Shown here: one piece after another, positions 1 to 27,874 of the stretch
How positions within the stretch are numbered: the stretch's first letter is position 1
Layout: each line of letters starts with the position of its first letter
Assembly: GCA_951812955.1 (NCBI GenBank)
Contig: OX638340.1
Coordinates: 832,001-896,000, forward strand
Reading direction: 5' to 3'
Length of the DNA stretch: 64,000 nt
DNA from: an uncultured Gemmatimonadota bacterium
Lineage (GTDB): Bacteria; JAAXHH01
Notes under the pieces: generated by a model
What the model saw: only the letters and a program-made list of their open reading frames with translations
Told to the model about the DNA's origin: nothing
The model's database searches: none
Translations under genes and position numbers: made by a program

Positions 1-2
1 CC

Positions 3-332
3 CGGATCGATACGGTTCTGCGCGGCGCCCAGGCACTGCACTTTGCCGCAAAGGCGGGATTCACTGGGGTCATGGAAGTGCTGTTGGAAAACGGGGCGCC
101 GGTCGACGGGCAAAATGACGATGGCGAAACCCCCCTGTTCTACGCGCTGAAGGCGGGTCCCAGGGCCGATGTTGTCAAATCCGTGGAACTGCTGTTATCC
201 CATGGCGCAGATCCGAATATTGAAGACAGGCTGGGCAAGACGCCCCTGGGAAATGCCTGCCGGATGAAGCGTCCCGATAAAGCTCGAATCGTCTCGGTGC
301 TCGAAGCGGCTAGTCCTTCCTTACCGGCGTAA
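3..332 (+). CDS. Ankyrin-repeat protein, 5'-partial (gene starts upstream of the window)
   Basis: The frame is open from position 3 and reads ...ALHFAAKAGFTGVMEVLLENGAPVDGQNDDGETPLFYAL...LLLSHGADPNIED..., which is canonical ANK repeats. Stop at 330-332. Confidence 0.75.
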   Translation, partial: RIDTVLRGAQALHFAAKAGFTGVMEVLLENGAPVDGQNDDGETPLFYALKAGPRADVVKSVELLLSHGADPNIEDRLGKTPLGNACRMKRPDKARIVSVLEAASPSLPA

Positions 333-1470
333 TGTCTTTCAAAAACTTAACAAGAGATTTTCGCTCCGCCGTCGGGCCGTGTATTTCAATCCCCACTTCC
401 GCCCATACCAGCGGCGTCGTGCCGTGTTCATCGTCTGTCGCGGCGGGATCGGCGCCGGATTCGACGAGCAACTTCGCGATCTCCCTGTTCCCGCATAGAT
501 GGAGGGGCGTCTGCCCGAAATCCGCACGGGCGTTAGCATCCGCTCCCCAGTCCAGCAGCGCCCGGACCGTATCCTCCCATCCATGCTGAACCGCGGCGTG
601 AAGTGGCGTGCCCACCACGGCGTGGACGCCGATCTTTCCCGAATATGCTGTGACACCCCCATCTCTTTTGTGGACCTGGCGTAGTTCGTCTGTCCTTCCA
701 AGCGCCGCAAGCTGGCACGGGTCGGCCGGCGCGCCGCGCGCAATCAGGAATTCCGCGACCGCGCGGCACCGCTCCCCGCGGGAAAGGGCCGCGCCCAATG
801 GCGTGTTGCCCTCGCTGTCGAGCGTATTCAGGCGCGCTTGGTGGTCGAGAAGCAGCCCGGCCGTTTCGACTGACATGGCCACGTGGAGGGGTGATACTCC
901 GCCTAGGTCAGGGCGGGCCGCCGCTTCAGGATCTTCCGCGAGAATCGCACGAACGGTAGAGACGTCATCTAGCAGGCACGCGGCGTGGATGTCGACCCTG
1001 GCGCCCCGGTCCCGCAATAGAGCGGCGGCCTCAAGGTGTCCCCAGTGTGCGGCCAGGTGCAAGGCGCTCCAACCGCCGTAGGAATCGGCGCCGTGGTTCG
1101 GATCCGCTCCATTCCGCAGCAGCAATTCGATCACCCTCGTATCCCCGCGCTCGGCCGCCAGTTGTATAGGCACGGGACGGCCTCCCCAACGGGGATGGGC
1201 CACCGGTTCATTAACGATACCGGGCTCACGGGAAAGGACTTCTTCGACCTGCTCCGGGTCACCCTGCCAGATGGCGGCTCGCAGTCGTTCCTTCGCCGTC
1301 TCGCCGTTCCGGGCCGTCTGACCGCCGGGTTCAAGGGGAGTGGACATCGGTCTATCCTTCCTTTCTCCATGTTCTGTCATCGAACGGTCGAACGATTCGT
1401 CGATGAATGGGTGTACGTTTACACGATCCAGCGTAGTGGAAAGGCTGGAGGGGAACGGTATTGGGCCCAT
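310..1470 (-). CDS. Ankyrin-repeat protein
   Basis: Multiple 33-aa ANK repeats (GTPLHAAVQHGWEDTVRALLDWGADANA..., GQTPLHLCGNREIAKLLVESGADP). The true start may be an internal Met at about 1380 or 1347. The 3' end overlaps the convergent upstream ANK gene. Confidence 0.8.
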   Translation of the reverse strand: MGPIPFPSSLSTTLDRVNVHPFIDESFDRSMTEHGERKDRPMSTPLEPGGQTARNGETAKERLRAAIWQGDPEQVEEVLSREPGIVNEPVAHPRWGGRPVPIQLAAERGDTRVIELLLRNGADPNHGADSYGGWSALHLAAHWGHLEAAALLRDRGARVDIHAACLLDDVSTVRAILAEDPEAAARPDLGGVSPLHVAMSVETAGLLLDHQARLNTLDSEGNTPLGAALSRGERCRAVAEFLIARGAPADPCQLAALGRTDELRQVHKRDGGVTAYSGKIGVHAVVGTPLHAAVQHGWEDTVRALLDWGADANARADFGQTPLHLCGNREIAKLLVESGADPAATDDEHGTTPLVWAEVGIEIHGPTAERKSLVKFLKDITPVRKD

Positions 1471-1507
1471 GATCTGTCCGTCCGGGTTCCTGCCGGGATA
1501 GGTTTTT

Positions 1508-1600
1508 TCAGGCGACGGCTCTTGTTTTTCGGAGGCGATCCGCGATGGCCGCGAAGAAGGCGTCCATGTCCGCGTGCAGGATCGTACGGGATTGATTCAC
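1508..1600 (-). pseudogene. Remnant of a dinB 5' end (30 codons) carried by an old segmental duplication
   Basis: The minus strand reads (M)NQSRTILHADMDAFFAA then diverges and stops. The DNA at 1541-1600 is about 85% identical to the 5' end of the intact dinB at 12620-12674. Confidence 0.5.
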
Positions 1601-1840
1601 GATGGGCTGGATTGGACTACATCACACAAAAACCGCGTTGCAGGATTGTTAGTCCTGATTATACTGTCTGGCGTGGATTCTTACAAGCGCATCGGGAAAG
1701 CGGATCAGCAAAAATCAGTCTATCGCGCGGGATGTGCGTTGGATGTGCGTTGGAAATTGCGTCGATCCATTTGCGGTGGGACGGTTGAATGTCGTGATAC
1801 CGCGCGGACCCGACTCAACCGCAGCATTGAGGGAGGTAAC

Positions 1841-2452
1841 ATGCCCGGTTATGAGGCACTGAACCAGGCGCTGATCCGTGCCGTGGAAGACGGTGATGTC
1901 GAAAGGGTAAGGGAGGCTGTAAGGCAGGGCGCCGATGCGGCGTGCATTACGCCCGCGCATATTCCTCCCCAGAAGGAAACCGACGAACATTACGAGATTA
2001 TGCGATATCTTTTTGCTAGGGGGACCGATGTCAACTTCGCCGGATTCGAAGAAGGGATACTCATGACCTTCTCGGCATACCGCGGACAGTTGCGTTATCT
2101 TCGCCTCTACCTGGAAGCCGGCGCCGACATCAATCTCGCCCAGCCTATGAACGGCGTTACGGGCCTGCACGTGGCGGTTCAGCACAATCTACTGGAAATC
2201 GTACGATTCTTTCTCGACCATGGCGCCAGGGTCGACCAGGCCTGCCACGATGACGCGCCGACCCCGGATCCCGGTCACGTATACGGAGAAACGGCCCTGC
2301 ATTTCGCCGCGGCGGGCGCCGACAGGGAGATCGTACAAATGCTCCTGGATGCCGGTGCGGACCGGTCCGCTATTTCTTCCCGAGGCGAATCGCCGCTGGA
2401 CTACGCGATGCAGAATAACCGGCCGGAAGACGTGCTTCGGCGGCTCAGGTAG
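1841..2452 (+). CDS. Ankyrin-repeat protein (paralog of 12808..13419)
   Basis: ATG at 1841 is preceded by GGGAGG. The protein is about 75% identical to the 12808 protein. ANK motifs include GVTGLHVAVQHNLLEIVRFFLDHGA and GETALHFAAAGADREIVQMLLDAGAD. The long ORF from 1574 is an N-terminal over-extension. Confidence 0.8.
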   Translation: MPGYEALNQALIRAVEDGDVERVREAVRQGADAACITPAHIPPQKETDEHYEIMRYLFARGTDVNFAGFEEGILMTFSAYRGQLRYLRLYLEAGADINLAQPMNGVTGLHVAVQHNLLEIVRFFLDHGARVDQACHDDAPTPDPGHVYGETALHFAAAGADREIVQMLLDAGADRSAISSRGESPLDYAMQNNRPEDVLRRLR

Positions 2453-2578
2453 GTTGAAAGGGGTAGCAGTAATCCGTTTGAACACGCCCTTAATACGTTG
2501 ACAAAAAGGGCCTAATGCCAGCAAATCATCCTCGCTTCATGCGCTTTTCGCAGGATTTATGCACAATAAAGGTTAACC

Positions 2579-3757
2579 ATGCAACATAGTATCGTTATGA
2601 AAGAAAAGGGACGCTACAACGCGTTTCCTGTATTGACTCAACTTCCGGACGGGCGGTTGACGATCGGCTGTTTCTCTTCGCCTTTCGGGGATCACTACGG
2701 TCTGGCAGACTGGCTGACGTTCGTGTCCTGCAACAACGGACGAACCTGGACGCTGTCGGAAGATCCTTCGTTGCCACCCAACTGGCCCGGTACATCGCCG
2801 CGGGAGCGGTACGACAGACTTTCCGGCATTTTACCCGATGGAACCTTTATGGCTGTGGGCTCGGTGGGACCGGAAATCTGGACACTGGACCGTCGGGAGG
2901 AAGCGGAGGCGCGGGGCCTGAGTTTCGTAGAGGATGAGACGTACACGTCTCTTTTTCCGGGAAAGCTGATCATAAAGGGTTATCGACTGTCGACGGTACG
3001 ATCCCGGGATGAGGGACATTCCTGGGATCGGCGCACCTGGACCGTGCCAGGCTATGAATTTACGGTCGGTTTTCCACGCGGAATTGTACTCGAAGACGGT
3101 ACGTGGTTGTTTCCTGTTTACACAATGCGAGCCGGGGGCGGGGGCGGGGGCGATTGTCTCATATTCCGGTCCAGCGACGACGGAGAGACCTGGCATCTCC
3201 ATGAGGCGGTGCCGCGTATCGGCAGCGAATGGGCACTGGTAGAGACCGAGCCGAACCGTGTCCTGGGCCATATCCGCTCGACGTGTTACTGGGCGCCGGG
3301 TGTTGTTAAGCATACCTATCAGAAGGACCGGTTCTACACCTTGGAAGTCTGGTCCGAAGACGGCGGCAGGACCTGGACCTGCCCGGTAGAGACGTCATTC
3401 GAGGGCTATCCGAACCACCTGCTCAAATTGAGTGACGGACGTATTCTATGTACCTATGGCTATCGCCGAGCCCCGATGGGTATACGGGCCTTGATTAGTG
3501 AGGACGGCGGACGCACCTGGGACACAGACCGCGAATACGTGCTCCGGGATGACGGCGGTGGCTTATCGAATGAGTGGCCTCCGGAAAAGCGTGCCCGGAT
3601 GGGCGGCGCGGACGTGGGCTATCCGATTTCAGCGGAATTGGGTGACGGTACCATGCTGACCGTCTATTACATCACGACGGAAGATGGCATCACCCATGTC
3701 GCTGCCACCCACTGGCATCCTGACCACGATAGACCTACAAGTCCTCGAAGAGGGTAA
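2579..3757 (+). CDS. BNR/Asp-box repeat protein (sialidase/GH33-like beta-propeller)
   Basis: Five S-x-D-x-G-x-T-W Asp-box motifs (SCNNGRTW, SRDEGHSW, SSDDGETW, SEDGGRTW x2). Confidence 0.65.
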   Translation: MQHSIVMKEKGRYNAFPVLTQLPDGRLTIGCFSSPFGDHYGLADWLTFVSCNNGRTWTLSEDPSLPPNWPGTSPRERYDRLSGILPDGTFMAVGSVGPEIWTLDRREEAEARGLSFVEDETYTSLFPGKLIIKGYRLSTVRSRDEGHSWDRRTWTVPGYEFTVGFPRGIVLEDGTWLFPVYTMRAGGGGGGDCLIFRSSDDGETWHLHEAVPRIGSEWALVETEPNRVLGHIRSTCYWAPGVVKHTYQKDRFYTLEVWSEDGGRTWTCPVETSFEGYPNHLLKLSDGRILCTYGYRRAPMGIRALISEDGGRTWDTDREYVLRDDGGGLSNEWPPEKRARMGGADVGYPISAELGDGTMLTVYYITTEDGITHVAATHWHPDHDRPTSPRRG

Positions 3758-3843
3758 GCAATAGTCGCTATTGCGGTGGGTATTACAAGGGCAGATCCTG
3801 CTCCGTACCGCGTCAGGTCCCTTGCCTTCCGCCATCTGTGCGC

Positions 3844-5577
3844 TCAGGAAACGGCACCGGCTTCCCGCAGACGGTCCGCGATGGACGCGTGCCCGTACCG
3901 TTCCGCCCAGGCGAGCGGTGTGGTCCAGGGTTCCCCATCGGGCTGAGGATCGGCACCGTGCTGGAGATACAGTTCGACCAGATCCTCGCGTGCCCAGCGG
4001 GACGCCCAGGCGAGCGGCGTGGAGTGGAGCAGCGTGTCCCTGCCTTCGAGCGTGGCGCCGTGGTCGAGAAACAGGCGGGCGAACTCGATCCGCTCGTCCT
4101 CTCTCAGCACCGGCTCTCCCCAGACCTTGCCCGTTGCCGCGATATGATGAAGGAGGGATGTGTCGCGCCGGCCCTTCACGTTCGGGTCCACCCCGTGGTC
4201 GAGGAACATGCGTACGATATCGGGGAATATGGATCGATCGAAATCACGGTACTGGCGATGGGGACAACAGGGCCAGAGACGAATAGGCTGGATGATCAGA
4301 CCGTACCACCGGGGGTCGTCCAGGGCCCAGTCCAGTTTGCGCAGGCACACGCCCACCACGCTGGGATCACCGCCGCAGGCGGCCCCCCAAAGAATCTCCT
4401 CGACCAGTTCAGGCTTGAGGCTCAGCGCCATGACCGCCGCAGAGGTATCGCATTCCAGGGCCGCACTGTCGGGAGTCATCGAACCGCCGTACCTGTAGAG
4501 CAGACGCTTCATGCGTTCGTCCCTGTTGTTGTAGGCGCGGCTCATGGGATCGCCAGACGCGTAAACGGCGGCGTTAGGATCGGCACCGCGATCCAGAAGC
4601 AGTTGCGCGATGTCGTACATCCCGTCGCCCGCTGCGATCCAAAGCGGTTCGCCCCAGTTGTATGTTTCTTCTTCCAGGGATTGTATTCGGTACCGCTGGT
4701 CCGGGTCCATGCCGAGATCGAGCAGCAGCTTCACCATCTCGTATCGTTTATGACGGACAGCATCACCCAGCAGGTGGGTTTCGGTTTCAATATCCGGTTC
4801 GAACTGGTCCTGGTGACTTTCCGCGATCTGACGTACGGCTTCCAGGTCTCCAAGCATGACACTCGTTCGAAGACTTCGCGGGGCCCCCGCGGTCATCAGG
4901 ATGCCCGCGGCCATGAAACAGCCTTCAGCCCGGCGCCTGTCCGTTGCGACGGTTTGTTCCGCAGCCAGCTCGAGCGGAGTCCGGCCCTCCAGGTTGGTCT
5001 TGCCCGTATCGGCGCTGGCAGTCAGCAGCGCTTGAACGAGACCGGGATAGCCGTGGCTGGCGGCGTGGTGCAGGACCGTGTTTCCGTTCTCGTCGCAGGC
5101 CTCCGCTAGTTCGGGCGTTTCGTGTATATCCCGCATCGCGCCCGCCACATCGCCATCCTCCACTTTTCGGGCGAGCAGAACGACCTCTGGGGAAACGGTC
5201 AGGTTCGGACAGAGGTTCGCCTCGCGTCTCCGCTCCAGTTCTTCATTGATTGTTTCTATGATATCACCGAATCCGCGGTCGCGAGCCATAGCCAGGGGCG
5301 TGGACGCGTCCCTGTGGGGATAGACCCCCTGGTTGGGATCGGCGCCCGCGGCCATGAGTGCGGAAACGGCTTCCGTCTGGCGGTTTACCACCGCGTGATG
5401 CAGGGCACGGTGCTCATCGAAAGAAGCCGTATCCACACCCACCAGGTGGGGTGCGACGGCCAGAATGGTATTAAGGCGTTTCATGTCTCCGGCGGCGGAC
5501 GCCTGGCACAGTTCGGCCACGGTGAAGACGCCGGAGGTCATCCCGTTCGTCATGATTCCTTCTCCTCGATTCGTCAT
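3844..5577 (-). CDS. Ankyrin-repeat protein (577 aa)
   Basis: Many ANK repeats (GNTVLHHAASHGYPGLVQALLTASAD, TPLAWASRWAREDLVELYLQHGADP). There are two in-frame ATG starts, at 5577 and 5553, created by a 24-bp tandem duplication. Confidence 0.85.
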   Translation of the reverse strand: MTNRGEGIMTNGMTSGVFTVAELCQASAAGDMKRLNTILAVAPHLVGVDTASFDEHRALHHAVVNRQTEAVSALMAAGADPNQGVYPHRDASTPLAMARDRGFGDIIETINEELERRREANLCPNLTVSPEVVLLARKVEDGDVAGAMRDIHETPELAEACDENGNTVLHHAASHGYPGLVQALLTASADTGKTNLEGRTPLELAAEQTVATDRRRAEGCFMAAGILMTAGAPRSLRTSVMLGDLEAVRQIAESHQDQFEPDIETETHLLGDAVRHKRYEMVKLLLDLGMDPDQRYRIQSLEEETYNWGEPLWIAAGDGMYDIAQLLLDRGADPNAAVYASGDPMSRAYNNRDERMKRLLYRYGGSMTPDSAALECDTSAAVMALSLKPELVEEILWGAACGGDPSVVGVCLRKLDWALDDPRWYGLIIQPIRLWPCCPHRQYRDFDRSIFPDIVRMFLDHGVDPNVKGRRDTSLLHHIAATGKVWGEPVLREDERIEFARLFLDHGATLEGRDTLLHSTPLAWASRWAREDLVELYLQHGADPQPDGEPWTTPLAWAERYGHASIADRLREAGAVS

Positions 5578-6312: not shown

Positions 6313-7119
6313 TTGGAGATGAAAATGCGGTTTGACAAGGAAAAACAGTGGATCGGCGCAGTGTACGCCGAAGACCTCGAACTCATGGCCGAAATGTTGG
6401 CGGAGGACCCGTCGCTGGCCGATTTCAAGCATGAAGCCTTCGATGATCCGTACCGCTCGGGACGCTTCCCTGTCGCCACCCTCGTTTTTGCCGTAACCGG
6501 ACCGCCCCAACAGCAGATCGACTGGCGCCAGGTAGAGTGCAGAATCAACTTCGACATGGTCAGGTTGCTGGTCGAAGCAGGCGCCGACCCCAATATCGAC
6601 AACGTGCACGGCCGTCCGCTCTGCACGTGCCGGGACGAGCAAATCGCACAGTACCTGATCGATCACGGCGCCGACATCAACCTGTGGCACGGTAACGGCG
6701 GCGCGCCCGTCTACTTTTCGGTCTGGCAAATCGATCCCGAAAGATTGAAGATGCAGATCCGGCTGGGAGCCGACCCAGGTCAGATCAATCCTCAAAACGG
6801 ATCATCCGCGTTTCATTCAGCCGCGGAAGTGAGACCTGGCGATCACCAGCTACCGGATCACCGCGAGACCATCCGGATTCTCGGCGACGCCGGCCTGGAC
6901 CCCAATCACCGGGCGGGAATAGGCGTACAGTCCGACTGGGGGCCCATCTACCAGGGGGATGCGCCCCTGCACATGGCCGCCCAGTTAAACCGGCCCGAAG
7001 TAATCGAGGCCCTGGTCGCGGCCGGATGTAGCCGGACCCTTACGAATGCCAACAACGAAACGCCGCGAGAAGTGGCAGTTAGAGTCGGTCGCGGTCCGGA
7101 CATTGCCGGGCTTCTTTAA
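6313..7119 (+). CDS. Ankyrin-repeat protein
   Basis: ANK-like repeats (GADPNIDNVHGRPL..., DHGADINLWHGNGGAPV..., GDAPLHMAAQLNRPEVIEALVAAG). The likely ATG start is at 6325, with GGAG 6 nt upstream. Confidence 0.65.
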   Translation: MEMKMRFDKEKQWIGAVYAEDLELMAEMLAEDPSLADFKHEAFDDPYRSGRFPVATLVFAVTGPPQQQIDWRQVECRINFDMVRLLVEAGADPNIDNVHGRPLCTCRDEQIAQYLIDHGADINLWHGNGGAPVYFSVWQIDPERLKMQIRLGADPGQINPQNGSSAFHSAAEVRPGDHQLPDHRETIRILGDAGLDPNHRAGIGVQSDWGPIYQGDAPLHMAAQLNRPEVIEALVAAGCSRTLTNANNETPREVAVRVGRGPDIAGLL

Positions 7120-12807: not shown

Positions 12808-13419
12808 ATGACCGACAAGGCCGATCTCAACAAGTTACTGATAGATTCCGTGGAGCATGGTGACCCGGTGACAGTATCCAGGGCGGTTGAAATGGGAGCC
12901 GATCCATCCTGCATTACTCCTGCACACATACCGCCTCAGCGGGAAACCGAGGAGCATTTCGAGATCATGCGATACCTGTTCTCCGTGGGTACTGACGTCA
13001 ATTTCGCCGGGCTCGACGAGGGCATCCTCATGACCTTTTCCGCTTACCGCGGACAATTGCGATACCTGCGCCTGTACCTCGAAGTCGGCGCGGATATCAA
13101 CCTCGCCCAGCCCATGAACGGCGTCACGGGACTGCACGTGGCGGTCCAGCATAATCTGCCGGACGTCGTACGATTCTTCCTCGAAAACGACGCCATCGTC
13201 GATCAGGCCTGCCACGATGACGCGCCGACAACCGATCCCGGTCACGTATTTGGAGAAACAGCCCTGCATTTCGCCGCAGCAGGCGCCGACAGGGAAATTG
13301 TTGAAATGCTCCTGGCCTTCGGAGCGGACCGCGCTTCGAAATCTTCCAGGGGAGAAACACCGCTGGACTACGCGGTTCGCAACAGCCGGTCTCCGGACGT
13401 GCTGCGTTTACTCAAGTAG
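12808..13419 (+). CDS. Ankyrin-repeat protein (paralog of 1841..2452)
   Basis: ATG preceded by GGGAGGGAG. Same ANK architecture as the 1841 gene. Confidence 0.8.
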   Translation: MTDKADLNKLLIDSVEHGDPVTVSRAVEMGADPSCITPAHIPPQRETEEHFEIMRYLFSVGTDVNFAGLDEGILMTFSAYRGQLRYLRLYLEVGADINLAQPMNGVTGLHVAVQHNLPDVVRFFLENDAIVDQACHDDAPTTDPGHVFGETALHFAAAGADREIVEMLLAFGADRASKSSRGETPLDYAVRNSRSPDVLRLLK

Positions 13420-17014: not shown

Positions 17015-17425
17015 ATGGGTAAAACGATCAGAGTCATCCTTGCAGTTTTGGCAGGCATGGCGGTTGGCAGCGCGGTAAATATGGGTCTGATTCTGTTGAG
17101 CCCCATGGTCATTCCGCCTCCGCCCGGCGTCGATGTGACCGATATGGACTCCCTGGCGTCGTCCATGCACCTGTTCCAGTTCAAGCATTTTATCTTTCCC
17201 TTTCTGGCCCATGCACTCGGTACCCTGGCTGGTGCATATCTGGCCGTGACGATCGCTTCAGGATACAGACTTAAAATATCCATGCTCATTGGATCGTTGT
17301 TCCTGCTCGGTGGAATCGCCAATGCCATGATGCTACCCGCGCCGGGGTGGTTTATAGGGGTGGACCTGATCGGCGCTTATTTGCCCATGGCCTGGATCGG
17401 TGGTCGATTGACCGGCAAGGACTAA
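17015..17425 (+). CDS. Hypothetical small membrane protein
   Basis: Four predicted TM segments and no recognisable motif. Confidence 0.4.
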   Translation: MGKTIRVILAVLAGMAVGSAVNMGLILLSPMVIPPPPGVDVTDMDSLASSMHLFQFKHFIFPFLAHALGTLAGAYLAVTIASGYRLKISMLIGSLFLLGGIANAMMLPAPGWFIGVDLIGAYLPMAWIGGRLTGKD

Positions 17426-17452: not shown

Positions 17453-18343
17453 ATGGCGTCCAATACAGGCGAATTCGAATCCTTCCTGGCGATGTTTGAA
17501 CGCGGTGATTTGGAGGCCGCAAGCGCCTATGTAGAAAGCCATCCCCTGCTGGCCGATTACGATGGCATCCAGGCCCACCCTCTACTTCGGGAGTTCGTTC
17601 GCAGGAATTGCGGCCACTGCTACAAATCGTCCCATCGGGCCATCGCAGATCTCCTTATTCCTGATCGGATTCGAGCCTTTCGGAATGACGTGATGGCCGA
17701 CCGGACCGATAACGTCAAGTCACGACTGAACGCGGAACCCAATCTCGTGCATGCAGAGTTTACCGGCGGCCGGGGAATCGCCCGAGCGATACACCACTGG
17801 CGGTCCATCCCTGTCGGCAAGCTGCTGCTGGACGGCGGGGCCGACGTGAATGCCCTTACGACTGTAGGTTGTGCCGGGGAAACACCCCTCATGATGCAAC
17901 TTCGTTTCGGTACCGTGGAAGGCGTGCGCTTTCTTTTGGCAAACGGCGCGGAAACGAATCTGGGCGGACTCAAGCATTCGCCGAGCACATCGATGGCCGC
18001 GGGGCTCAAGCTGCTGCTTCGGCACGGATGGGACATCAACGAGCGGGTAGGCGGCCGCACCCTGCTGCACCATGACGCCAATCACGGTCACGGTAAGCGC
18101 GTTCAACTGCTGCTGGGGCATGGCGCCGATCCCAACATTAAAGATGCCGAGGGTCGAACCGCGTTGCACCTGGTCAGTGCGAGAGGGGTCGGCGCGGAGA
18201 CGATCCGCGCCCTGGTGGAAGCCGGCGCACTCGTGGATGCCCGTGATGATCAAGATAGAACTCCATTAGACCTGGCCGCTTCGGCCAGGAGCCAGGCAGC
18301 GCTCCGAGCGCTTCAGAAGCTTGGCGCCCCTGGCGCCCGGTGA
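17453..18343 (+). CDS. Ankyrin-repeat protein
   Basis: ANK repeats (GETPLMMQLRFGTVEGVRFLLANGAETN, GRTALHLVSARGVGAETIRALVEAGALVDA). Confidence 0.8.
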   Translation: MASNTGEFESFLAMFERGDLEAASAYVESHPLLADYDGIQAHPLLREFVRRNCGHCYKSSHRAIADLLIPDRIRAFRNDVMADRTDNVKSRLNAEPNLVHAEFTGGRGIARAIHHWRSIPVGKLLLDGGADVNALTTVGCAGETPLMMQLRFGTVEGVRFLLANGAETNLGGLKHSPSTSMAAGLKLLLRHGWDINERVGGRTLLHHDANHGHGKRVQLLLGHGADPNIKDAEGRTALHLVSARGVGAETIRALVEAGALVDARDDQDRTPLDLAASARSQAALRALQKLGAPGAR

Positions 18344-18384: not shown

Positions 18385-20085
18385 GTGTCCCAAAAACACG
18401 CTTTGGAAATCTGTGGAAAATACCCTGAACGCGCAGAACGCATGGCCTTCCCAGGCAAGTTCCTTGGGCGGGTACATCTCGATGCGTGCCGGACCGGTTG
18501 CATGATTTGTCCGGGGCTGGGCCCGGAGCTCGGTCGCCCCTATTATGACGACCGCTGGGGCGACGATACCGACTGGATCGACGGCGAATCCGCCTGGACT
18601 CTGTTCAAAGCAAGCACGGCAGGTGACCTGGAAGTTATCGCAGCACTCCTCGACGAAGACCCGCGTCTCGTGAATGCGATGCACTGGTACACCCAGCCCG
18701 TACACCTGGCCGCCCGGCACGGGCACGCCGAAGCGACGGAGTTGCTTCTCGCTCGGAACGCCGACCCGGGGCTGGTTATTTTCGATTCGACCTGGTCAAG
18801 CCTGCTCGAGAACACACGATCCCGTGGGTTTGAGGACGTAGTGGAAGTGATTTCCGGTGCGATGCGAGATCGATTCGGCTACGATCCCGCGTTCATGGAG
18901 ATAGCCGGGCTGATTGAGAACAGCAACGTTGAAATGGTTAAAACGGCGCTGAATGACAATCCCGAACTCGTTGATCGATCCGACGCGGCAGGAAACAACG
19001 GTCTTCACCTCGGTGTGATAAATGGCCGTAAAAACCTGGTCGAACTGTTTCTCGAACGCGGTCTGCCCATAGATTCACGACGTGCTGACGGGAAAACACC
19101 GCTGACACTGTCTTTCGACACGGGTTTCGGACAACATCCACCGGACCCGAAACTGGGTATAACCGAGAATCTTTTGATGAATGGTGCGGATTACGCCATC
19201 ACGGCAGCCAGTTACCTGGGTGATCATGCCCGGGTTCGTTCGATCCTCGATGAGAATCCATCGGCTGCCGGCCGCGACGCGTCGATGAAGAGCCCCCTGG
19301 CGTACGCGGCTAGAGCGGGGCACGAAGATATTGCCCGGATGCTGCTTGACGCAGGAGTCGATGGCCATGTCGTGGACGAAGCGCTTTTTGAAGCTGTATG
19401 GTGTAAGCACGCGGGTGTTGCTGACCTGTTGCTGGAATACGGAGCCAACCCGAACGTGGAATTGGATTCTTGCGGATATGCCGCGGGTACCGATGAACAC
19501 GCGATACGGGATCTGCTCGTGCGTAATGGCGGGGTGACTCCACCATATTGGGAACTGGGTCAAAACGAACTCCGTCAGCTGGTGGATTGCAGAGCCGCAA
19601 GGGTCCGAGATCCCTACCTGATTGCGAATGTGCTCGAATCCGAGGACGAGAAACTGATCGACAGGTTACTGGATGGTGATCCACTTGCACTCGGCCGCCT
19701 GGAGGAACTTCAATACCTGCCGGGATGGGGTGACCATGCTGTGATTACGCGCAAACTGGTCGCGGCGGGGCTCGATCCGAACCGAAGGACATTCGAAGGC
19801 CAGACCTATCTTCACGTCTGTGCCAGGCAGGGCTGGGAGAAGACGGCTCAGGCATTAATCGAACAAGGTGCTGCGGTAAACGTACTGGATGAGAAGGAAG
19901 GCTGGACACCGCTGGCGATCGCGGTCAAAAACGGCCGGATCGGTATGGTTCGGCTGTTGTTGGAACGCGGCGCGGATCCCTACCTGGCCGATTGGCCATG
20001 GACTCGACCGCTAACGGTTGCAGAGGAGATTGATAACGAAGGAATTACAGAACTTTTACGTCTCTACAAAGGCAATACTGCATAA
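18385..20085 (+). CDS. Ankyrin-repeat protein (566 aa)
   Basis: At least 10 ANK repeats (QPVHLAARHGHAEATELLLARNADP, GWTPLAIAVKNGRIGMVRLLLERGADP). Confidence 0.85.
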   Translation: MSQKHALEICGKYPERAERMAFPGKFLGRVHLDACRTGCMICPGLGPELGRPYYDDRWGDDTDWIDGESAWTLFKASTAGDLEVIAALLDEDPRLVNAMHWYTQPVHLAARHGHAEATELLLARNADPGLVIFDSTWSSLLENTRSRGFEDVVEVISGAMRDRFGYDPAFMEIAGLIENSNVEMVKTALNDNPELVDRSDAAGNNGLHLGVINGRKNLVELFLERGLPIDSRRADGKTPLTLSFDTGFGQHPPDPKLGITENLLMNGADYAITAASYLGDHARVRSILDENPSAAGRDASMKSPLAYAARAGHEDIARMLLDAGVDGHVVDEALFEAVWCKHAGVADLLLEYGANPNVELDSCGYAAGTDEHAIRDLLVRNGGVTPPYWELGQNELRQLVDCRAARVRDPYLIANVLESEDEKLIDRLLDGDPLALGRLEELQYLPGWGDHAVITRKLVAAGLDPNRRTFEGQTYLHVCARQGWEKTAQALIEQGAAVNVLDEKEGWTPLAIAVKNGRIGMVRLLLERGADPYLADWPWTRPLTVAEEIDNEGITELLRLYKGNTA

Positions 20086-21145: not shown

Positions 21146-22372
21146 ATGATGAACGCCACCATCAGACAATTGCCCGATCAGCCGAATCTGCGACTACTCG
21201 AAAACGAGGCATCTGAACTGCTCGAGAATGGCTCCTGCACTACACAGGCCGAGGCACGTTTCAAACTAGCGCACCTGTACGGTTTTAAGAGTTGGCCGAA
21301 ACTGGAAGCCTACGTATCATCCATCGGATCCATGGGAGAACTCGAACAGGCAATCCAGGACGACGACGTCGATAGAGTGAAGCGGATATTGGACGAGGAC
21401 CCGGGGCTGATTCACCGTGAAGGGCACTGGGTCAAACGCCGCAGGCACAACGGCTACCTGCCGCTCGCATACGCTGCGTTTTTCGGTAAGGTAAACGTGC
21501 TGGCGGCACTGGTCGAGGCCGGTTCGAATGTACGCGCTGGGGAGGACAAGGCGTTACGAGCCGCGGCGTGTTTCGACAAAAACCTCCCCGCGGTCGAATT
21601 ACTGATCCGCCATGGAGCAGACCCAAACGCATCGACTACATCGCCTTCCGGTGTCCCGTACCGGGTGATCGATTATCCATGCATGACGTTGGCGCCCAAG
21701 ATGTTAGCCCACCTGGTTGAGAAGGGCGGTATTTTGAAGCCGGCCAATGCCGGGATGGTACTCGCGACGAATGAACGCAGACCCCGGGAGAAAGCCGCCT
21801 GCCTTCGCGTGATGGAACATGCGGGTATCCCGTTTCCGGATTCCCCTCCGATGGCCCTTCATCTCAGGGACTCGAACCGTCTGGAATCGCATCTGCTCAG
21901 GGATCCCGGATTGCTCTCGAGGTCGTTCAGCGAAGAAGACATCTTCCCAACGGGTTTCGAAATCAAGCGTCCTACGCCCTACGCTTACGCAACACCGCTG
22001 ACCGGTGGGGTCTCCCTGCTTCACATGGCTGTCGAGTTGTGTGACGTGGAACTGGCGCGGTGGCTCATCGAGCATGGCGCCGACGTTAATGCCGCCGCGG
22101 GGACAGACGACGAGGGATACGGCGGATGGACGCCCCTGTTCCACGCCATGGTCACGCTGCGCGTCCCACGTGGTTTTGCCGAAATCGTCGATCTGCTCCT
22201 GGATCATGGCGCCGACCCGGAAGTGCGAGCGTCCCTGCGTAAACCGACTCCAGAGGGTGGAGAAGCCACCTGGCGCGACGTTACGGCGGCCGATTACGCC
22301 CGAAGATTCATCTACACGGATTTAGTCAATCACGACGCGCTGCAGCGGGTCATGGTGGCCGGTGCGAAATAG
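21146..22372 (+). CDS. Ankyrin-repeat protein with a distinct N-terminal module
   Basis: ANK repeats (GVSLLHMAVELCDVELARWLIEHGADVNA). The N-terminus carries AHLYGFKSWPKLEAYV. Confidence 0.8.
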   Translation: MMNATIRQLPDQPNLRLLENEASELLENGSCTTQAEARFKLAHLYGFKSWPKLEAYVSSIGSMGELEQAIQDDDVDRVKRILDEDPGLIHREGHWVKRRRHNGYLPLAYAAFFGKVNVLAALVEAGSNVRAGEDKALRAAACFDKNLPAVELLIRHGADPNASTTSPSGVPYRVIDYPCMTLAPKMLAHLVEKGGILKPANAGMVLATNERRPREKAACLRVMEHAGIPFPDSPPMALHLRDSNRLESHLLRDPGLLSRSFSEEDIFPTGFEIKRPTPYAYATPLTGGVSLLHMAVELCDVELARWLIEHGADVNAAAGTDDEGYGGWTPLFHAMVTLRVPRGFAEIVDLLLDHGADPEVRASLRKPTPEGGEATWRDVTAADYARRFIYTDLVNHDALQRVMVAGAK

Positions 22373-22400
22373 GGCGGGAAGCGGCGTTTGAAACATACGC

Positions 22401-24284
22401 ATGGACCCCGCCATGACTCCGAAAACGCCTTCTACCAGTCTACAGGTTGGTACCGTGTCCGATCACGATTATGCCCCCTCGAAGAACTGGCCCTACCCGG
22501 TCACAAAGTCACAAATCATGGACGAGGTCCGGAAACTGTCATTGGCCATCCAGGACGGTCGTGCCGAAGCCATGGCAGAAAAAAACAGGTATGGAAGTTC
22601 AGCTGATCCGTCATCGTTCTCCCCGGACGACGCACGGAACGTACTCGCCCTAAGTTACGGATTCCCGGGCTGGACACAGGTAGAACGGTACTTCGATACG
22701 GTAGACAGGTATTCGCGCGACCCTAACATGGAACCCACGCCAACCAATTCGGATGACGCGTCTTCGCTCGCCGATGTTTTCCTTCGTCTTGCCTGCCTGA
22801 CGCAGGGCGTCCAGGACCACCCGTCTCGGTGGGCAAGGGCCAGGGCCTTGCTCGATGACCATCCGAAACTATCCCGGTTGAATATCTACACCGCTTCGGT
22901 CGCCGGCGACGTTTCAGCCGTGGGCGAATACCTGGAAGCGGATTCTGAACTGGCTACGACGCCTGGCGGCCCCCATGACTGGGAGCCCCTGCTATACCTG
23001 GCGTATTCCCGTCTGGACCGCGAGACCTCGGGGCATTCCGCCGTCGAAATCACCCGGTTGCTCCTCTCCCATGGCGCCGACCCGAACGCGGGCTACCTCT
23101 GGGCGGGTTTCCCCTGCCCTTACACCGTACTGACCGGAGTCTTCGGCGAGGGTGAGAACGGTCCGGTCAGGTGTCCTCCACACCCTAACTGCTGCAAACT
23201 GGCGGAAATCCTGTTGGAGGCCGGGGCCGATCCCAACGACGCCCAGACACTATACAACAGGATGTTCAGCCGCGACGACGAACACCTTCGGTTCCTGTTC
23301 ACGCACGGCCTGGGGAAGGACCGGGACCGGCCCTGGCACCGGTTGTTGGGCGAACAATCCCGCGGCTGGGTGAGCAGTCCCGCGAGCATACTGGCCTACC
23401 AGCTTCAGTGGGCAGCCCGATGGAACTACCTGGATCGCGTCAAGTTACTGGTCGAAAACGGCGCCGACGTAAACAGGCCCTCCAACCGGCCCGATGCGCG
23501 ATCACCTTACCGCGAGGCCGTGTTCCACGGAAACGAGTCCATCGCCGAATACCTGGCAATCTGCGGCGCGGAGACGTTTGTGCTGGACGACCTGGACCGT
23601 TTCGCCGGCGCGTGCATCAGTGGAGACCTGGGTCGTGCCCGCGCGATGCTCGCACGCGATCCGTCACTCGTTGAAAAACTTGGAGAACGCGGGAACACGC
23701 TCATGGAGAACGCCGTTGGGTCGGACAACCGGGACGCGGTCCGGCTGATGTTCGAACTGGGCTTCGACTTGAAGAAATCCGGTATGCAAGAAGCGGCCCG
23801 TTATGGCCACCTGGACATGATCAAACTGCTGGTCGAGCTTGGGACTGATGTTTCCCAAACGGACGCGGGCCACGAGATCTGTGCCCTGGGCTATGCCAGC
23901 CATTACCAGCAAAATAACGTGATCGACTACCTGGCGCAGTTCGCCGGGATACACAGAGCAGTGCAGTCGGACTTGTTGGAACGGGTCGGGGAACTGCTTG
24001 ACGAAGATCCCGGTCTCGTACACGCTCGAGATACCAGCGGCAACTCGCCGCTGCACTGTCTCGACGTGGACAACAGGATGGAAGATACGGAGGAGATACT
24101 CCGTCTGCTCGTAACGCACGGAGCCGATGTCAATGCCAGAAACAAGGAAGGCCTGACACCGCTCGACAGGCTGGAGCTTCTTTCCGGTTTCAGTCGAAGA
24201 GACGGTTTGGCGGAACTGTTGCGCGGGTACGGGGCCGTGGAGTCAGACGCCGCCGACGGGTCAAAGAACCGTCCGGAGTCGTGA
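22401..24284 (+). CDS. Ankyrin-repeat protein (627 aa) with an N-terminal module
   Basis: Many ANK repeats. The N-terminus carries ALSYGFPGWTQVERYF. Confidence 0.8.
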   Translation: MDPAMTPKTPSTSLQVGTVSDHDYAPSKNWPYPVTKSQIMDEVRKLSLAIQDGRAEAMAEKNRYGSSADPSSFSPDDARNVLALSYGFPGWTQVERYFDTVDRYSRDPNMEPTPTNSDDASSLADVFLRLACLTQGVQDHPSRWARARALLDDHPKLSRLNIYTASVAGDVSAVGEYLEADSELATTPGGPHDWEPLLYLAYSRLDRETSGHSAVEITRLLLSHGADPNAGYLWAGFPCPYTVLTGVFGEGENGPVRCPPHPNCCKLAEILLEAGADPNDAQTLYNRMFSRDDEHLRFLFTHGLGKDRDRPWHRLLGEQSRGWVSSPASILAYQLQWAARWNYLDRVKLLVENGADVNRPSNRPDARSPYREAVFHGNESIAEYLAICGAETFVLDDLDRFAGACISGDLGRARAMLARDPSLVEKLGERGNTLMENAVGSDNRDAVRLMFELGFDLKKSGMQEAARYGHLDMIKLLVELGTDVSQTDAGHEICALGYASHYQQNNVIDYLAQFAGIHRAVQSDLLERVGELLDEDPGLVHARDTSGNSPLHCLDVDNRMEDTEEILRLLVTHGADVNARNKEGLTPLDRLELLSGFSRRDGLAELLRGYGAVESDAADGSKNRPES

Positions 24285-24307: not shown

Positions 24308-24634
24308 TCACTTTCCCCATTTCGAAACGACCAGCCCCGCTAGCAGTCCGACGACGATCCCCGGCCCTACGATCTCCGCGTAGGATCCCGTGGGGACGGC
24401 CGCCAGCAGAGAAAGCGCCGCGCCGATCGCACCGCCGGCCATCACGTTCTTGCCGACCCCCTCGACCCTGCACGCGATAACGCCGACCAGCAGCCCGGTG
24501 ACCAGCCCCTTCACCGTTCCCGCTACGATGATCATGGTCATCATACCCTGGGCTTCAGGAACCAGAAACGCGGACAACCCGTCAAGCAGGCCGAGCGCGG
24601 CGCCGGCGATCAATCCCAATGGTACGCGATTCAT
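24308..24634 (-). CDS. Small Gly/Ala-rich membrane protein
   Basis: Three TM helices with GxxxG-like packing. Overlaps the upstream VOC gene by 4 bp (operon). Confidence 0.4.
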   Translation of the reverse strand: MNRVPLGLIAGAALGLLDGLSAFLVPEAQGMMTMIIVAGTVKGLVTGLLVGVIACRVEGVGKNVMAGGAIGAALSLLAAVPTGSYAEIVGPGIVVGLLAGLVVSKWGK

Positions 24635-25056
24635 GATGGCTGGTCCGGTGTATTCAGGTGGCAGTTGAACATCCAGTTTATACCGAATTTGTCCGTAATC
24701 ATCCCAAAACGAGAGCCCCAGAACGTATCCTGCAGCGGCATGGTCACCTCGCCGCCGGCCGACATGGCATCGAACACCTGCTCCAGTTCATCCACGCCCG
24801 CGAAGTCGATCGACAACGAGATGTTGGTATCCTCAGAGACCGTATCAATGTGGTCGGAACCCATGATCGCGTTGTCACCGAACCTGATGGACATGTGCAT
24901 GGCCTTGCCCACCATGTGGTCGGGGATTTCCATGCCGATGTCCTGGTCCTTGCTGTAGTAACTGATGTTCTCGACGGTACCGCCCAGACATTCCCGGTAA
25001 AATCCGAGCGCTTCCTCACATTGGCCGTTGAACGCCAGGTAGGGAACCAGCTTCAT
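24631..25056 (-). CDS. VOC-family protein (PhnB/YjdN-like glyoxalase fold)
   Basis: The N-terminus MKLVPYLAFNGQCEEALGFYRECLGG is characteristic of PhnB-like VOC proteins. Confidence 0.65.
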   Translation of the reverse strand: MKLVPYLAFNGQCEEALGFYRECLGGTVENISYYSKDQDIGMEIPDHMVGKAMHMSIRFGDNAIMGSDHIDTVSEDTNISLSIDFAGVDELEQVFDAMSAGGEVTMPLQDTFWGSRFGMITDKFGINWMFNCHLNTPDQPS

Positions 25057-25177
25057 GATACGACCTCCTCGATTTGCTCGTTACCGGATCGGTAACGAAT
25101 CTGCTCACTATGAACTGCAATCATACCCCAAGATACAATACAGCAGGGTTGAAAATTGTAAAAAAGCGACAACCACC

Positions 25178-26020
25178 TTACATGTCCGCGAATTTCACGT
25201 TGTTTTTGGCAAAGAAAGCCTTCGGCGTGAACCCGGAAAACGCCGTGAACTCCCTGATAAAATGAGCCTGGTCGAAATACCCGCATTCGTAGGCCAGTTG
25301 CGTCAGCGTCTTTCCCCGATACCCATCCAGATGATGGCAGATATTCAGGAACCTGCTGGTGCGGGCGAAGGTCTTCGGCGTCGTGCCGACCGTAGCCGCA
25401 AACTTCCTTTCCAATTGCTTTTTTGAAAGACCGACGCGCTGACCGACTTCTTCGATGGATAACTGCCCTCCGGCGGATCGAATGAGCTTTACCGCTTTAT
25501 CGAGGGCGGAATCGTTCGTGCGATACTCCGTCAGACGATCCAGCAGGAACTGTTGCACGACTTGGGCGAAATCCGTACCGCCCGCGGCCTTGCAGAGTTT
25601 CTCCATCAAGTCCTTATGATACGACGACCAGAGTGTCTCGGTGTCTACCGCATCGTCCAGAAAACTGCTGACCGGTTTGTCGAAAAAGTGATAGGCGCCC
25701 CACGGAAAGAAGCGTACCGAGACGAAGCCGGTCCGGCCGTTGGACTCGATTTCTATGCACCTGCGCATCTGGGAAATAGCGAAACTCTTCGGCTGGATCC
25801 TAAATTCCCTGCCCGCTACAGTTGTTATCCAGGGATCGCCGTAGTGAAAGACGACCTCCACGATACCGTCTGGTACGATGAGAGACTTTGGCGCGTGGTC
25901 ATCCTCGTGCTCGGATTCCATCATCCACACGAGCTGGACATAGGGAGCCAGGCCGGCGTGCGTTTTAAATTCGCGATATATCATGACGTGTACGAATTCT
26001 CCCGGTTTCGTGACCGTCAT
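25178..26020 (-). CDS. AraC-family transcriptional regulator
   Basis: C-terminal double HTH (...LSIEEVGQRVGLSKKQLERKF...LTQLAYECGYFDQAHFIREF...). Confidence 0.85.
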   Translation of the reverse strand: MTVTKPGEFVHVMIYREFKTHAGLAPYVQLVWMMESEHEDDHAPKSLIVPDGIVEVVFHYGDPWITTVAGREFRIQPKSFAISQMRRCIEIESNGRTGFVSVRFFPWGAYHFFDKPVSSFLDDAVDTETLWSSYHKDLMEKLCKAAGGTDFAQVVQQFLLDRLTEYRTNDSALDKAVKLIRSAGGQLSIEEVGQRVGLSKKQLERKFAATVGTTPKTFARTSRFLNICHHLDGYRGKTLTQLAYECGYFDQAHFIREFTAFSGFTPKAFFAKNNVKFADM

Positions 26021-26353
26021 TCGGTGTCATGCGCGACTCGCCGGGCCGGCGATGCCCGGAATGACGGATTAAGTAACCGGCAAAAAGCGACCGCGTCAAG
26101 CCAGAGCGTGTGCTCTACAGGTACAAGCCGGACTGAAGAAGCCTGACCGTCGTTCCGCCGACCGCTTTCTCTTGACGCATCCCTGGAGCGCCTGTATTTT
26201 GCCGATATCGGCGTGTGCAGGACGCCGCCCGTCCGCGGAAAGAACATAAGTTCACCTGTGTCGGTTCCCAATCTATCGTGGCAACCTTCTTCCTGCCCGT
26301 CCGGCGGACGCACGGGTGCTTCGGCGGTCTCATGATCGCTTGAAGGAGGTTCC

Positions 26354-27874
26354 ATGCCGTCCCTGCCTTCACAACCCGATATACGCCATCTCAGTCTGCA
26401 GGCGAAAACGCTTCTGAAGTCCGCGCGCAGCGGCGAAGAGCATGCCGTAGACAGAATCCGCTCGGCCATCGGAGTGCGACGCGAACGCCTCGTGCTGTCG
26501 GACGCCTACCATGCCATCGCCAGGGAATACGGGTTCAGGTCCTGGCCCCATCTCAAGATACACATCGAAATCGTCGCTAGAAACCTGGACGAACAGCGCG
26601 AGATGTTTCTGTCATCGGCATGGCTGTGGGGCGATCGGCAGAGAGCCGAGGCCCTGCTCGCTACCGCTCCGGAACTCTCCAAGGGAAACATCCATGCCGC
26701 CTGCGCCGCCGGGGACGTGGATGCCGTCGCAGGTATCCTGGAGGCCGACCCCGCTTCGGCCACGACGAAGGGCGGTCCGAGAGACTGGCCCCCGATACTC
26801 TACGCGACGTGGTCCTGCTTTCTTTCCGAACGTGCCGACGCCATGGTCCGAGTCCTGGAATTGCTGCTGCGGCACGGCGCCGACCCGGACAGCTACTGGG
26901 TGAACGAGTCGGACTGGAAAGAGTCGGCCCTTTACGGATGCGTTGAAAACAACTGCGTACCGGCGGCCAGGGTGCTGGTGGACGCGGGCGCCAACCCAAA
27001 TGACAACGAATCCCTCTACCACGCCTGTGAGAAATTCAACCTGGAACTGCTCGACACGGTCGCGGCGAACGGACTGGACGCGGAAGGCGTCTCCTATTGC
27101 ATCAAGCATGCCATGGACATGACATGGACCGAGGCCGTCATGTGGTTTCTCGACCAGGGCGCCGATCCCAACGCCATCCATCCCGCCGACCGGGAGACCT
27201 CCCTTCACTGGGCGGTAAAGAGAAACTGCACAGCAGACGTGATCAGTGCGCTCCTGGACGCCGGAGCGGACCCCAACGCACGCACGTCGACCGGGAAGAG
27301 TACGGCCCTCGGGATCGTCGGCTGGACGCCCCTCGATTTCGCCTTCCGGCTCGGTCGCGGGGAGGTCGCCGCGCTCCTACAGCGGAATAGCGCCGAACCG
27401 TCCCCCATGTCCGAATACGACCGCTTCGTAGTCGCGTGCGCCAATACGGACCTCGATATCGTGGAGCAACTGAAAGACCGTCACCTGGCCAACTTGACTG
27501 ACGACGACCGGACCCTCATCAGCCACGCGGCCCAGATGGACAACTGGGCGGCGGTCCGTCTCATGGCGGACCTGGGCTGGCCGGTAGACGCCCGGGGCTG
27601 GATGGATGCCACGCCCCTCTACTGGGCCCTGTGCAAAGGCCATGCCGAAATGGTCGATTTCCTGCTTCGGCGGGGTGTCTCCATCGAACCCATCGGCGGA
27701 TACTTCCAGGATCCGGTCCATGCCGTGATTCATTGCCAGTGGAATGGGGACAAAAGCGGGTACCCGGTCGCGCTCGGTCGACTGCTCGACCATGGCCTCG
27801 GCGTTCCGGAAGGACGCTATCCATGCGGCAATGTCGCGATGGACGAGGTGCTGTCGCGCTACGTCGAAAACTGA
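26354..27874 (+). CDS. Ankyrin-repeat protein (506 aa) with an N-terminal module
   Basis: ANK repeats (ETSLHWAVKRNCTADVISALLDAGADPNA). The N-terminus carries AIAREYGFRSWPHLKIHIE. Confidence 0.8.
   Translation: MPSLPSQPDIRHLSLQAKTLLKSARSGEEHAVDRIRSAIGVRRERLVLSDAYHAIAREYGFRSWPHLKIHIEIVARNLDEQREMFLSSAWLWGDRQRAEALLATAPELSKGNIHAACAAGDVDAVAGILEADPASATTKGGPRDWPPILYATWSCFLSERADAMVRVLELLLRHGADPDSYWVNESDWKESALYGCVENNCVPAARVLVDAGANPNDNESLYHACEKFNLELLDTVAANGLDAEGVSYCIKHAMDMTWTEAVMWFLDQGADPNAIHPADRETSLHWAVKRNCTADVISALLDAGADPNARTSTGKSTALGIVGWTPLDFAFRLGRGEVAALLQRNSAEPSPMSEYDRFVVACANTDLDIVEQLKDRHLANLTDDDRTLISHAAQMDNWAAVRLMADLGWPVDARGWMDATPLYWALCKGHAEMVDFLLRRGVSIEPIGGYFQDPVHAVIHCQWNGDKSGYPVALGRLLDHGLGVPEGRYPCGNVAMDEVLSRYVEN

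Follow-up and report, generated by a model that had tools for sequence, protein, structure and literature searches.

A conserved hot-spot of old ankyrin-repeat paralogues in a sponge symbiont and its possible cytoplasmic role

The first 27,874 nucleotides of a 64,000-nucleotide stretch of DNA from an uncultured Gemmatimonadota bacterium (assembly GCA_951812955.1, contig OX638340.1, positions 832,001 to 896,000 of the forward strand; hereafter the window) carry a dense cluster of genes for ankyrin-repeat (ANK) proteins. We found this cluster to be a conserved chromosomal hot-spot, vertically inherited and under the same purifying selection as its housekeeping neighbors. Six of its diverged genes (globin-ANK, ANK569, ANK547, ANK408, ANK627, and ANK506; Table 1) most likely encode cytoplasmic interaction or regulatory proteins, judging from their conservation, constraint, leaderless products, wide families, and domain fusions, and we give this reading a probability of roughly one half. 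The count of six comprises the three families that we searched for widely, their paralogues, and the genes that share an N-terminal module. The five short genes that consist of ANK repeats only (ANK345, ANK203a, ANK203b, ANK264, and ANK296) may act in the same mode or form a host-directed fraction; if any of the genes act on the host, these are the likeliest ones.

ANK-rich sponge symbionts are already known. What appears to be undescribed is the fusion of an extracytoplasmic function (ECF) sigma factor to ANK repeats, the sharing of an N-terminal head with a YGFxSW motif, and the finding that the ANK set of one symbiont includes at least three members of ancient families that also occur outside the sponge clade.

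Results

Identity and Density of the ANK Genes

All 11 open reading frames (ORFs) listed as ANK genes matched the ankyrin families of Pfam (Ank, Ank_2, Ank_3, Ank_4, and Ank_5), scoring 46–141 bits for Ank_2 and 50–112 bits for Ank against gathering cut-offs of 27.3 and 21.1 bits. A phmmer search with a designed ANK consensus across all greedily called ORFs of the window recovered the same 11 and returned no ANK gene between 28 and 64 kb. Tandem units of ~33 residues with a TPLH...GADxN signature are visible in the translations, a repeat-level hidden Markov model (HMM) found ~61 ANK repeats in the cluster genes, and ANK569 matched solely ankyrins and DARPins among the structures in PDB. The scores, signature, and structural matches show that the repeats are genuinely ankyrin and of no other solenoid type, as the initial annotation had it; its list of eleven ORFs was right as well, though not the figure of ten in its heading.

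The ANK genes take up 12,480 nt, or 45% of positions 1–27,874. They represent 11 of the ~29 genes of this part in comparison with 0/33 in the remaining window (Fisher P = 7e-5), and if 2% of genes were of this type, the Poisson probability of finding 11 among ~29 would be 4e-11. These two values rule out chance as the explanation of the density.

The left edge of the window falls within the first gene of the cluster. The peptide encoded at 3–332 matches the C-termini of two 522-aa proteins (P0001 and P0518) at 100% identity, and the whole gene is present in a relative whose DNA is 95–96% identical to the window (locus L082); its product there matches Bac_globin with 62.2 bits (cut-off 21) and Ank_2 with 122 bits. 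Judged from the relatives, the gene starts ~1.2 kb left of the window. As positions 3–332 are the tail of this globin-ANK gene, the cluster itself starts ~1.2 kb outside the window and comprises 11 ANK genes spread over ~29 kb.

Gene Families Reaching beyond the Sponge Clade

We searched for the globin-ANK, ANK506, and ANK569 families in a collection of 5.8 billion proteins and read their breadth from the source names of the proteins and organisms. All three families reach beyond the clade of sponge symbionts, and restriction to host-associated lineages was seen in none of the three. Of the 120 clusters listed for globin-ANK, more than 100 have this architecture over its full length, with source names that include Latescibacteria, Chloroflexota, Planctomycetes, Armatimonadetes, and Streptosporangiaceae; the name given to these homologues at JGI is "truncated hemoglobin YjbI/ankyrin repeat protein." Full-length homologues of ANK506 were found at 50–59% identity in Latescibacteria, Planctomycetales, and Pirellulaceae, and the family also takes in isolates of Planctomycetes and Armatimonadetes, with matches in Roseiconus nitratireducens (52%) and Capsulimonas corticalis (35%). 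For ANK569, full-length homologues at 42–50% identity came from Gemmatimonadota, Bryobacteraceae, and one soil-metagenome record, and its cluster at 71% takes in a protein from a marine metagenome. The named isolates and soil groups among these homologues are organisms that we take to be free-living.

Some homologues of ANK569 are fused to a sigma factor. Over 561 residues, these proteins of 756–757 aa share 60% identity with ANK569, and their N-terminal 190 residues constitute an ECF sigma factor: two of them (P0265 and P0267) scored 32–33 bits for Sigma70_r2 and 43–53 bits for r4_2, both above the Pfam cut-offs. As many as 17 contigs, the longest of 356 kb and the set drawn from several samples, carry the fusion, which is therefore not an assembly artefact. 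In one such locus (L087, positions 8001–12490; ENA ERZ27247685 k141_1318778, also JGI 3300009786 and 3300027839), downstream of the gene for the ECF sigma–ANK569-like fusion of 756 aa come another ECF sigma gene (225 aa), whose C-terminus runs into an ANK-like cap, and then a separate gene for a 471-aa ANK protein with ANK569 and ANK547 as its best matches in the window (28% over 475 aa with ANK547). Going by this arrangement, the second sigma gene and the 471-aa ANK gene look like a tandem, split second copy of the fusion. In the literature that we searched, we found no paper linking ECF sigma factors with ANK repeats.

An alignment revealed a module of ~85 residues, with the pattern LPxxPxLEQLKKQAKDLL...DAQRVLARxYGFxSWxxLK, that is common to ANK408, ANK627, ANK506, and homologues of ANK569. 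It is located at window positions 21146–21400, 22500–22760, and 26354–26620, and at the N-termini of the proteins P0298, P0313, and P0354. In an AlphaFold2 (AF2) model of the module from ANK506, it is predicted to form four helices with a confidence score (pLDDT) of 82, and its sequence shows a faint similarity to the N-terminus of the Pfam family Glyoxalase_8 (E = 0.06). Among the 120 best homologues of ANK569, 53 have no N-terminal extension, ~61 carry the YGFxSW module, and 4–5 carry a sigma factor. Because the homologues differ in this position, the N-terminal slot is exchangeable: it may be empty, carry the YGFxSW module, or be taken by an ECF sigma factor.

Conservation and Constraint

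Every complete ANK gene of the cluster has reciprocal-best orthologues of 61–96% identity, mostly near full length, that are syntenic in at least 1 of 11 relatives, and the syntenic 21-kb loci of these relatives contain 3–8 ANK genes each. ANK569 is the best conserved of them (Table 1). The ANK genes had a median ratio of nonsynonymous to synonymous substitution rates (dN/dS, Nei–Gojobori) of 0.16, compared with 0.17 for the remaining ORFs, three of which are probably spurious; at ~80% identity, dS is near saturation in this comparison (~0.7–1.5). Against the strain of 95% identity, the ratio ranged from 0 to 0.39 for the ANK genes and from 0.06 to 0.23 for their neighbors, while the tail of globin-ANK (110 codons) reached 1.07 with very few substitutions. 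The paralogues within the cluster are 23–32% identical, the sole exception being ANK203a and ANK203b with 77%. The cluster had been described as an expansion; with a single close pair among otherwise old paralogues, a recent amplification does not fit.

Regulatory or Host-Directed Proteins

In the mode of action that we propose for the six genes, the ANK solenoid would bind a partner protein and the N-terminal slot would give the signalling input or output, by haem-based sensing, a sigma factor, or a docking module. The stand-alone ANK569 would be the detached C-terminal extension of an ECF sigma factor and would work in trans, its target being a sigma factor or some other protein. We consider the ANK body a candidate sigma partner because of the analogy with ECF sigma factors that bear regulatory C-terminal extensions, such as those of the ECF41 and ECF42 groups. 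The locus offers two candidates for testing, the interaction of ANK569 with ECF sigma factors and the binding of haem by globin-ANK. A bolder version, in which part of the ANK repertoire of sponge symbionts does not target the host, both ANK569 and ANK547 are detached ECF-sigma ANK extensions, the YGFxSW module is an interchangeable head that serves docking or signalling in cytoplasmic ANK regulators of one class, and the whole 29-kb locus serves as a regulatory hub combining haem sensing with sigma control rather than as an effector arsenal, is tentative and, in our estimate, rather doubtful.

The organism itself is host-associated, as the initial annotation had proposed. When species-representative genomes were scanned with DinB, 11 metagenome-assembled genomes (MAGs) stood out as a tight group at 80–95% identity, the next match being at 55%. 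All close relatives with informative names are sponge-symbiont MAGs from Aplysina and Ircinia: APA_bin_41 comes from Aplysina aerophoba (Robbins et al.) and jk18x7bins.54 from Caribbean Ircinia, and the prefixes of SB0665_bin_8 and IRC1_bin_16 agree with those of sponge bins, IRC_PAM_SB0661 being from Ircinia ramosa and SB0665_bin_33 being listed among the sponge-associated Entoporibacteria. The relatives are labelled Gemmatimonadetes or Candidatus Latescibacterota at NCBI, the phylum resting on these database labels. Host association is supported because the closest named MAGs are derived from sponges.

This setting makes an effector arsenal the strongest competing explanation, one that we regard as possible yet unlikely: the ANK proteins would reach the sponge cells and save the symbiont from digestion by disturbing vesicle trafficking or phagocytosis. 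ANK proteins are statistically enriched in sponge MAGs, Latescibacterota included (PMC8163846; also PMC12993501), the local density of 11 in 29 genes is extreme, ANK203 was recently duplicated, and nothing in the five short ANK-only proteins speaks against such a role. However, the ten complete ANK proteins show no N-terminal hydrophobic core or membrane-spanning segment, in agreement with the earlier remark that they have no obvious Sec signal peptide, and Pfam scans of the 64-kb window gave no secretion-system genes, type IV secretion (T4SS) included. Most sponge MAGs with ANK proteins lack secretion systems (PMC8163846). All three searched families also occur in taxa not known as sponge symbionts, with haemoglobin, sigma-factor, or YGFxSW N-termini, and the genes are under purifying selection as strong as in the housekeeping neighbors, without the fast evolution often seen at the host interface. 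Taken together, these observations speak against the earlier proposal of effectors that act on host phagocytosis and trafficking for at least 6 of the 11 genes.

Several points weigh against the cytoplasmic reading of the six genes. Effectors without a leader can leave the cell via type III, IV, or VI systems, in vesicles, or by lysis, and the host lineage is a sponge symbiont. Pfam scans detected no sigma factor gene in the 64-kb window, where ANK569 and ANK547 both stand alone; the sigma link of ANK569 is thus of the Rosetta-stone kind, drawn from homologues of 60% identity. The neighborhoods of the other homologues add little to it: in the ANK506 family, an ECF sigma gene and a kinase gene lie upstream in one Pirellulaceae contig, a weak association, and the surroundings of the Bryobacteraceae homologue of ANK569 are uninformative. 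The YGFxSW module has no fold match in PDB, and 5 of the 11 genes have no placement in a wider family. One of these, ANK203b, was searched against 1.8 billion representative proteins, where the result was swamped by giant multi-ANK proteins and contained two short family-like representatives only. Furthermore, ANK proteins of other sponge symbionts altered phagocytosis and conferred evasion on Escherichia coli, according to the passage of PMC8163846 that cites Nguyen et al. 2014.

Counts of ANK genes are routinely read as a genomic sign that symbionts, of sponges and of other hosts, manipulate the host, and the lack of secretion systems in most of these ANK-rich bacteria is a standing puzzle. 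A repertoire that is partly not secreted fits the remark of Robbins et al. to this effect. If the cytoplasmic pattern generalizes, ANK tallies would overstate the effector content of such genomes, and the pattern would explain why part of the ANK repertoire needs no secretion system.

Chromosomal History

The cluster contains one relocated segment. In a self-comparison with blastn, positions 1927–2456 matched 12894–13423 (79%), and 1543–1603 matched 12617–12677, the 5′ end of dinB (84%). The duplicate at 1535–2456 aligns without a break, at 84% along 920 nt, with the locus next to dinB in another lineage (L010), and DNA matching ANK203 lies at the dinB-adjacent position in six further loci of relatives (L004–L007, L009, and L011). 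From these matches, ANK203b is the apparent source of ANK203a, by a segmental duplication that carried along 61 nt of dinB. Against the same relative that has the whole globin-ANK gene, the nucleotide identity of window positions 1–12670 is a mosaic from gene to gene, with 84% for AHSA1, 94% for ANK569, and 99.7% for ANK203a; this pattern suggests recombination among co-occurring symbiont strains.

ANK genes are often found on mobile elements, and both the relocated copy, with its closest DNA in another lineage, and the mosaic identity, which suggests exchange within the clade, could be taken as signs of a recent horizontal arrival on a phage of the ANKp ("Ankyphage") kind or on a genomic island; in addition, ANK296 has a generic similarity of 32% to the ANK proteins of Wolbachia WO phages. 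For the cluster as a whole, an arrival of this kind is largely refuted already and we consider it very improbable. The GC content is uniform along the window at ~0.6, no tRNA was found in it, and Pfam scans turned up no integrase, transposase, or phage genes. All complete ANK genes have syntenic orthologues among the 11 relatives, the one gene scanned against the viral contigs of IMG/VR, ANK203b, had no relative there, and the 23–32% identity among the paralogues indicates old divergence. The initial annotation had placed the genes among housekeeping genes on the chromosome rather than on a mobile island, and these results bear it out.

Similarly remote is a role as periplasmic or envelope proteins of the Pseudomonas AnkB type, protecting or assisting enzymes such as catalase against host oxidants: the haemoglobin part of the globin-ANK fusion belongs to a family tied to O2 and NO chemistry, and a gene for a small hydrophobic protein precedes ANK296 and ANK547, but the ANK proteins have no signal peptide, lipobox, or membrane anchor, and Pfam scans found no catalase or peroxidase gene next to the ANK genes.

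Genes of the Cluster and the Rest of the Window

The features of the cluster are collected in Table 1. Gene starts were revised using the gene calls in near-identical contigs and the alignments of orthologues. Of the starts given earlier, 1841 stands, the paralogue likewise having 203 aa, whereas those at 1470, 5577, 6313, and 18385 likely lie at 1347, 5553, 6325, and 18442. For the third gene, we rejected a longer ORF at 1574–2452 with a higher Ank_2 score; the 203-aa paralogue and the calls in the relatives favor the ATG at 1841, and the longer ORF is further disfavored by the fragment of dinB at 1543–1603. Also rejected was a zinc-binding, anti-sigma-like motif (H-x3-C...C-x2-C) at the N-terminus of the ORF starting at 18385: orthologues do not conserve its cysteines, and the gene truly starts further downstream. 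With the exception of the globin domain, ANK repeats were all that Pfam detected in the ANK proteins of the cluster. The small hydrophobic protein gene probably heads an operon that extends from 17015 to 20085.

Table 1. Features of the ANK cluster, in window coordinates with revised starts
Feature	Position	Strand	Description	Orthologues (identity; relatives)
globin-ANK tail	3..332	+	3′ end (109 codons) of the gene for a 522-aa Bac_globin–ANK fusion; Ank matches	
ANK345	310..1347	-	ANK-only, 6 repeats; ORF to 1470, start called in relatives M42 (ATG at 1347)	72-74%; 5
Segmental duplicate	1535..2456	+	61-nt fragment of dinB 5′ end, intergenic stretch, and ANK203a (1841-2452, 203 aa, 6 repeats)	
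ANK569	3844..5553	-	569 aa, 9-10 repeats; directly downstream of AHSA1/SRPBCC gene 5574-6074	82-96% over 569 aa; 11/11
ANK264	6325..7119	+	264 aa, ANK-only, 4 recognizable repeats	81-94%; 10
ANK203b	12808..13419	+	Adjoins dinB, a position common to relatives	
Small hydrophobic protein	17015..17425	+	136 aa, no Pfam match; ends 28 nt 5′ of ANK296	80-89%; 6
ANK296	17453..18343	+	6 repeats, in the C-terminal two-thirds	61-78%; 6
ANK547	18442..20085	+	547 aa from revised start (orthologue alignment), ORF from 18385 (566 aa); 7-8 repeats; conserved non-ANK N-terminus of ~55 aa; distant paralogue of ANK569 (26% over 556 aa)	
ANK408	21146..22372	+	N-terminal YGFxSW helical module, then ANK repeats; first in the pair 21146-24284, 29-nt spacer	66-78%; 6
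ANK627	22401..24284	+	YGFxSW module at ~residues 34-98, then ANK repeats; paralogue of ANK506 (29% over 440 aa)	70-73%; 7
ANK506	26354..27874	+	YGFxSW module at ~residues 5-70, then ANK repeats	

The ordinary genes among the ANK genes encode a BNR_2 sialidase-like protein, AHSA1/SRPBCC, a ZIP transporter, a Gfo/Idh/MocA oxidoreductase, PdxH, DUF1761, DinB, SfsA, a pyridoxal phosphate (PLP) enzyme, GNAT, a glyoxalase, and an AraC regulator; the remaining window contains sucA/sucB, argG, tyrS, and catabolic enzymes. The BNR_2 gene (2579–3757, + strand), convergent to ANK569, is among the most conserved here, with 82–95% identity in 11/11 relatives, and genes of this kind have been tied to the degradation of host glycans in papers on sponge symbionts. 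A conserved gene for 309 aa inside the cluster (20094–21023, − strand) has a weak similarity to nucleotidyltransferases (NTP_transf_2, E = 0.01). In the relative with the whole globin-ANK gene, the region to the left of that gene holds a nucleotidyltransferase gene, a UvrA-like gene, and a family-B polymerase gene; the nucleotidyltransferase gene that flanks the left edge of its cluster (L082, 5634–6617) is of the Polbeta type.

Outside the cluster, the gene at 45722–47455 (+ strand) encodes a bicupin, with two Cupin_2 matches, that ends in a C-terminal tail of ~333 residues consisting of 54% Asp/Glu. The tail is built of internal DNA repeats (46571–47139 and 46673–47271, 72%) and accounts for the spike in AT skew (0.27) and GC skew (0.14) at 46–48 kb. 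Two tandem paralogues of ~400 residues (29885–31084 and 31088–32341, both − strand; 66% nucleotide identity over 600 nt) match no Pfam family at E values up to 1 and are probably real genes, given their high GC content at third codon positions (GC3, 0.78–0.79). A 218-aa ORF at 43887–44543 (+ strand) covers just the first 169 of the 384 positions of the AMP-binding profile and overlaps at its end the start of a CoA-transferase gene (44492); it may be a truncated gene or a pseudogene. Seven long ORFs are probably not genes: 7152–7382, 24658–25095, and 56578–57531 on the + strand and 26115–26372, 33395–33955, 39939–40409, and 43367–43861 on the − strand. Several of them have a low GC3 or Arg-rich, nonsense-like translations, and dN/dS was 0.65–1.35 for those at 7152–7382, 24658–25095, and 26115–26372. 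The ORF at 24658–25095 is antisense to the glyoxalase gene at 24631–25056, and that at 56578–57531 overlaps an AP_endonuc_2 gene on the opposite strand.

Comparison with Known Systems

The closest parallel to the sigma–ANK fusions are the ECF sigma factors with C-terminal extensions. In the architecture of ECF41 and ECF42, the extension takes over the regulation that a separate anti-sigma factor would otherwise provide, and the fused homologues of ANK569 similarly combine sigma region 2, region 4, and a large C-terminal domain in one polypeptide. They differ in that the extension is an ANK solenoid and not a SnoaL-like or tetratricopeptide repeat (TPR) domain. Fusion or adjacency to an ECF sigma factor is seen in the homologues only; ANK569 and ANK547 of the window stand alone, and Pfam scans of its 64 kb gave no sigma gene. 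Truncated haemoglobins (Bac_globin, YjbI type) are also known as fusions with other domains, and the first gene of the cluster likewise begins with Bac_globin; in contrast to other such fusions, its output domain is an ANK array of ~370 residues, of which the window holds the last 109.

The type IV Ank effectors (AnkB of Legionella, the Anks of Coxiella, AnkA of Anaplasma, and those of Wolbachia and WO) share with the present proteins the lack of a leader, the association with a host, and the many paralogues. They are lineage-specific, often fast-evolving, frequently located on mobile DNA, and dependent on a type IV system (Dot/Icm or VirB) that recognizes a C-terminal translocation signal, whereas the genes described here are syntenic, constrained, and chromosomal, with no secretion system in the window. 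Phage-encoded ANKp proteins, reportedly described from sponge viromes by Jahn et al. in 2019, are, like those of the cluster, ANK proteins of the sponge holobiont. ANKp proteins are characterized by a phage or prophage location and an N-terminal signal peptide; the cluster genes have neither a phage context nor signal peptides, ANK203b having been scanned against IMG/VR.

The nearest relatives in setting are the eukaryote-like proteins (ELPs) and ankyrin-repeat proteins (ARPs) of sponge symbionts (Nguyen et al. 2014; Reynolds & Thomas 2016; Robbins et al. 2021, PMC8163846), which as here are numerous ANK proteins in uncultured sponge lineages. The lineage studied, labelled Latescibacterota or Gemmatimonadota, is one for which ANK enrichment has already been reported. 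Export, expected of sponge effectors, has no counterpart in the window, where neither a Sec or transmembrane signal on the ANK proteins nor a secretion gene within 64 kb was found. The present set differs from these ELPs and ARPs in forming one conserved 29-kb hot-spot of leaderless proteins, at least three families of which extend beyond the known sponge symbionts.

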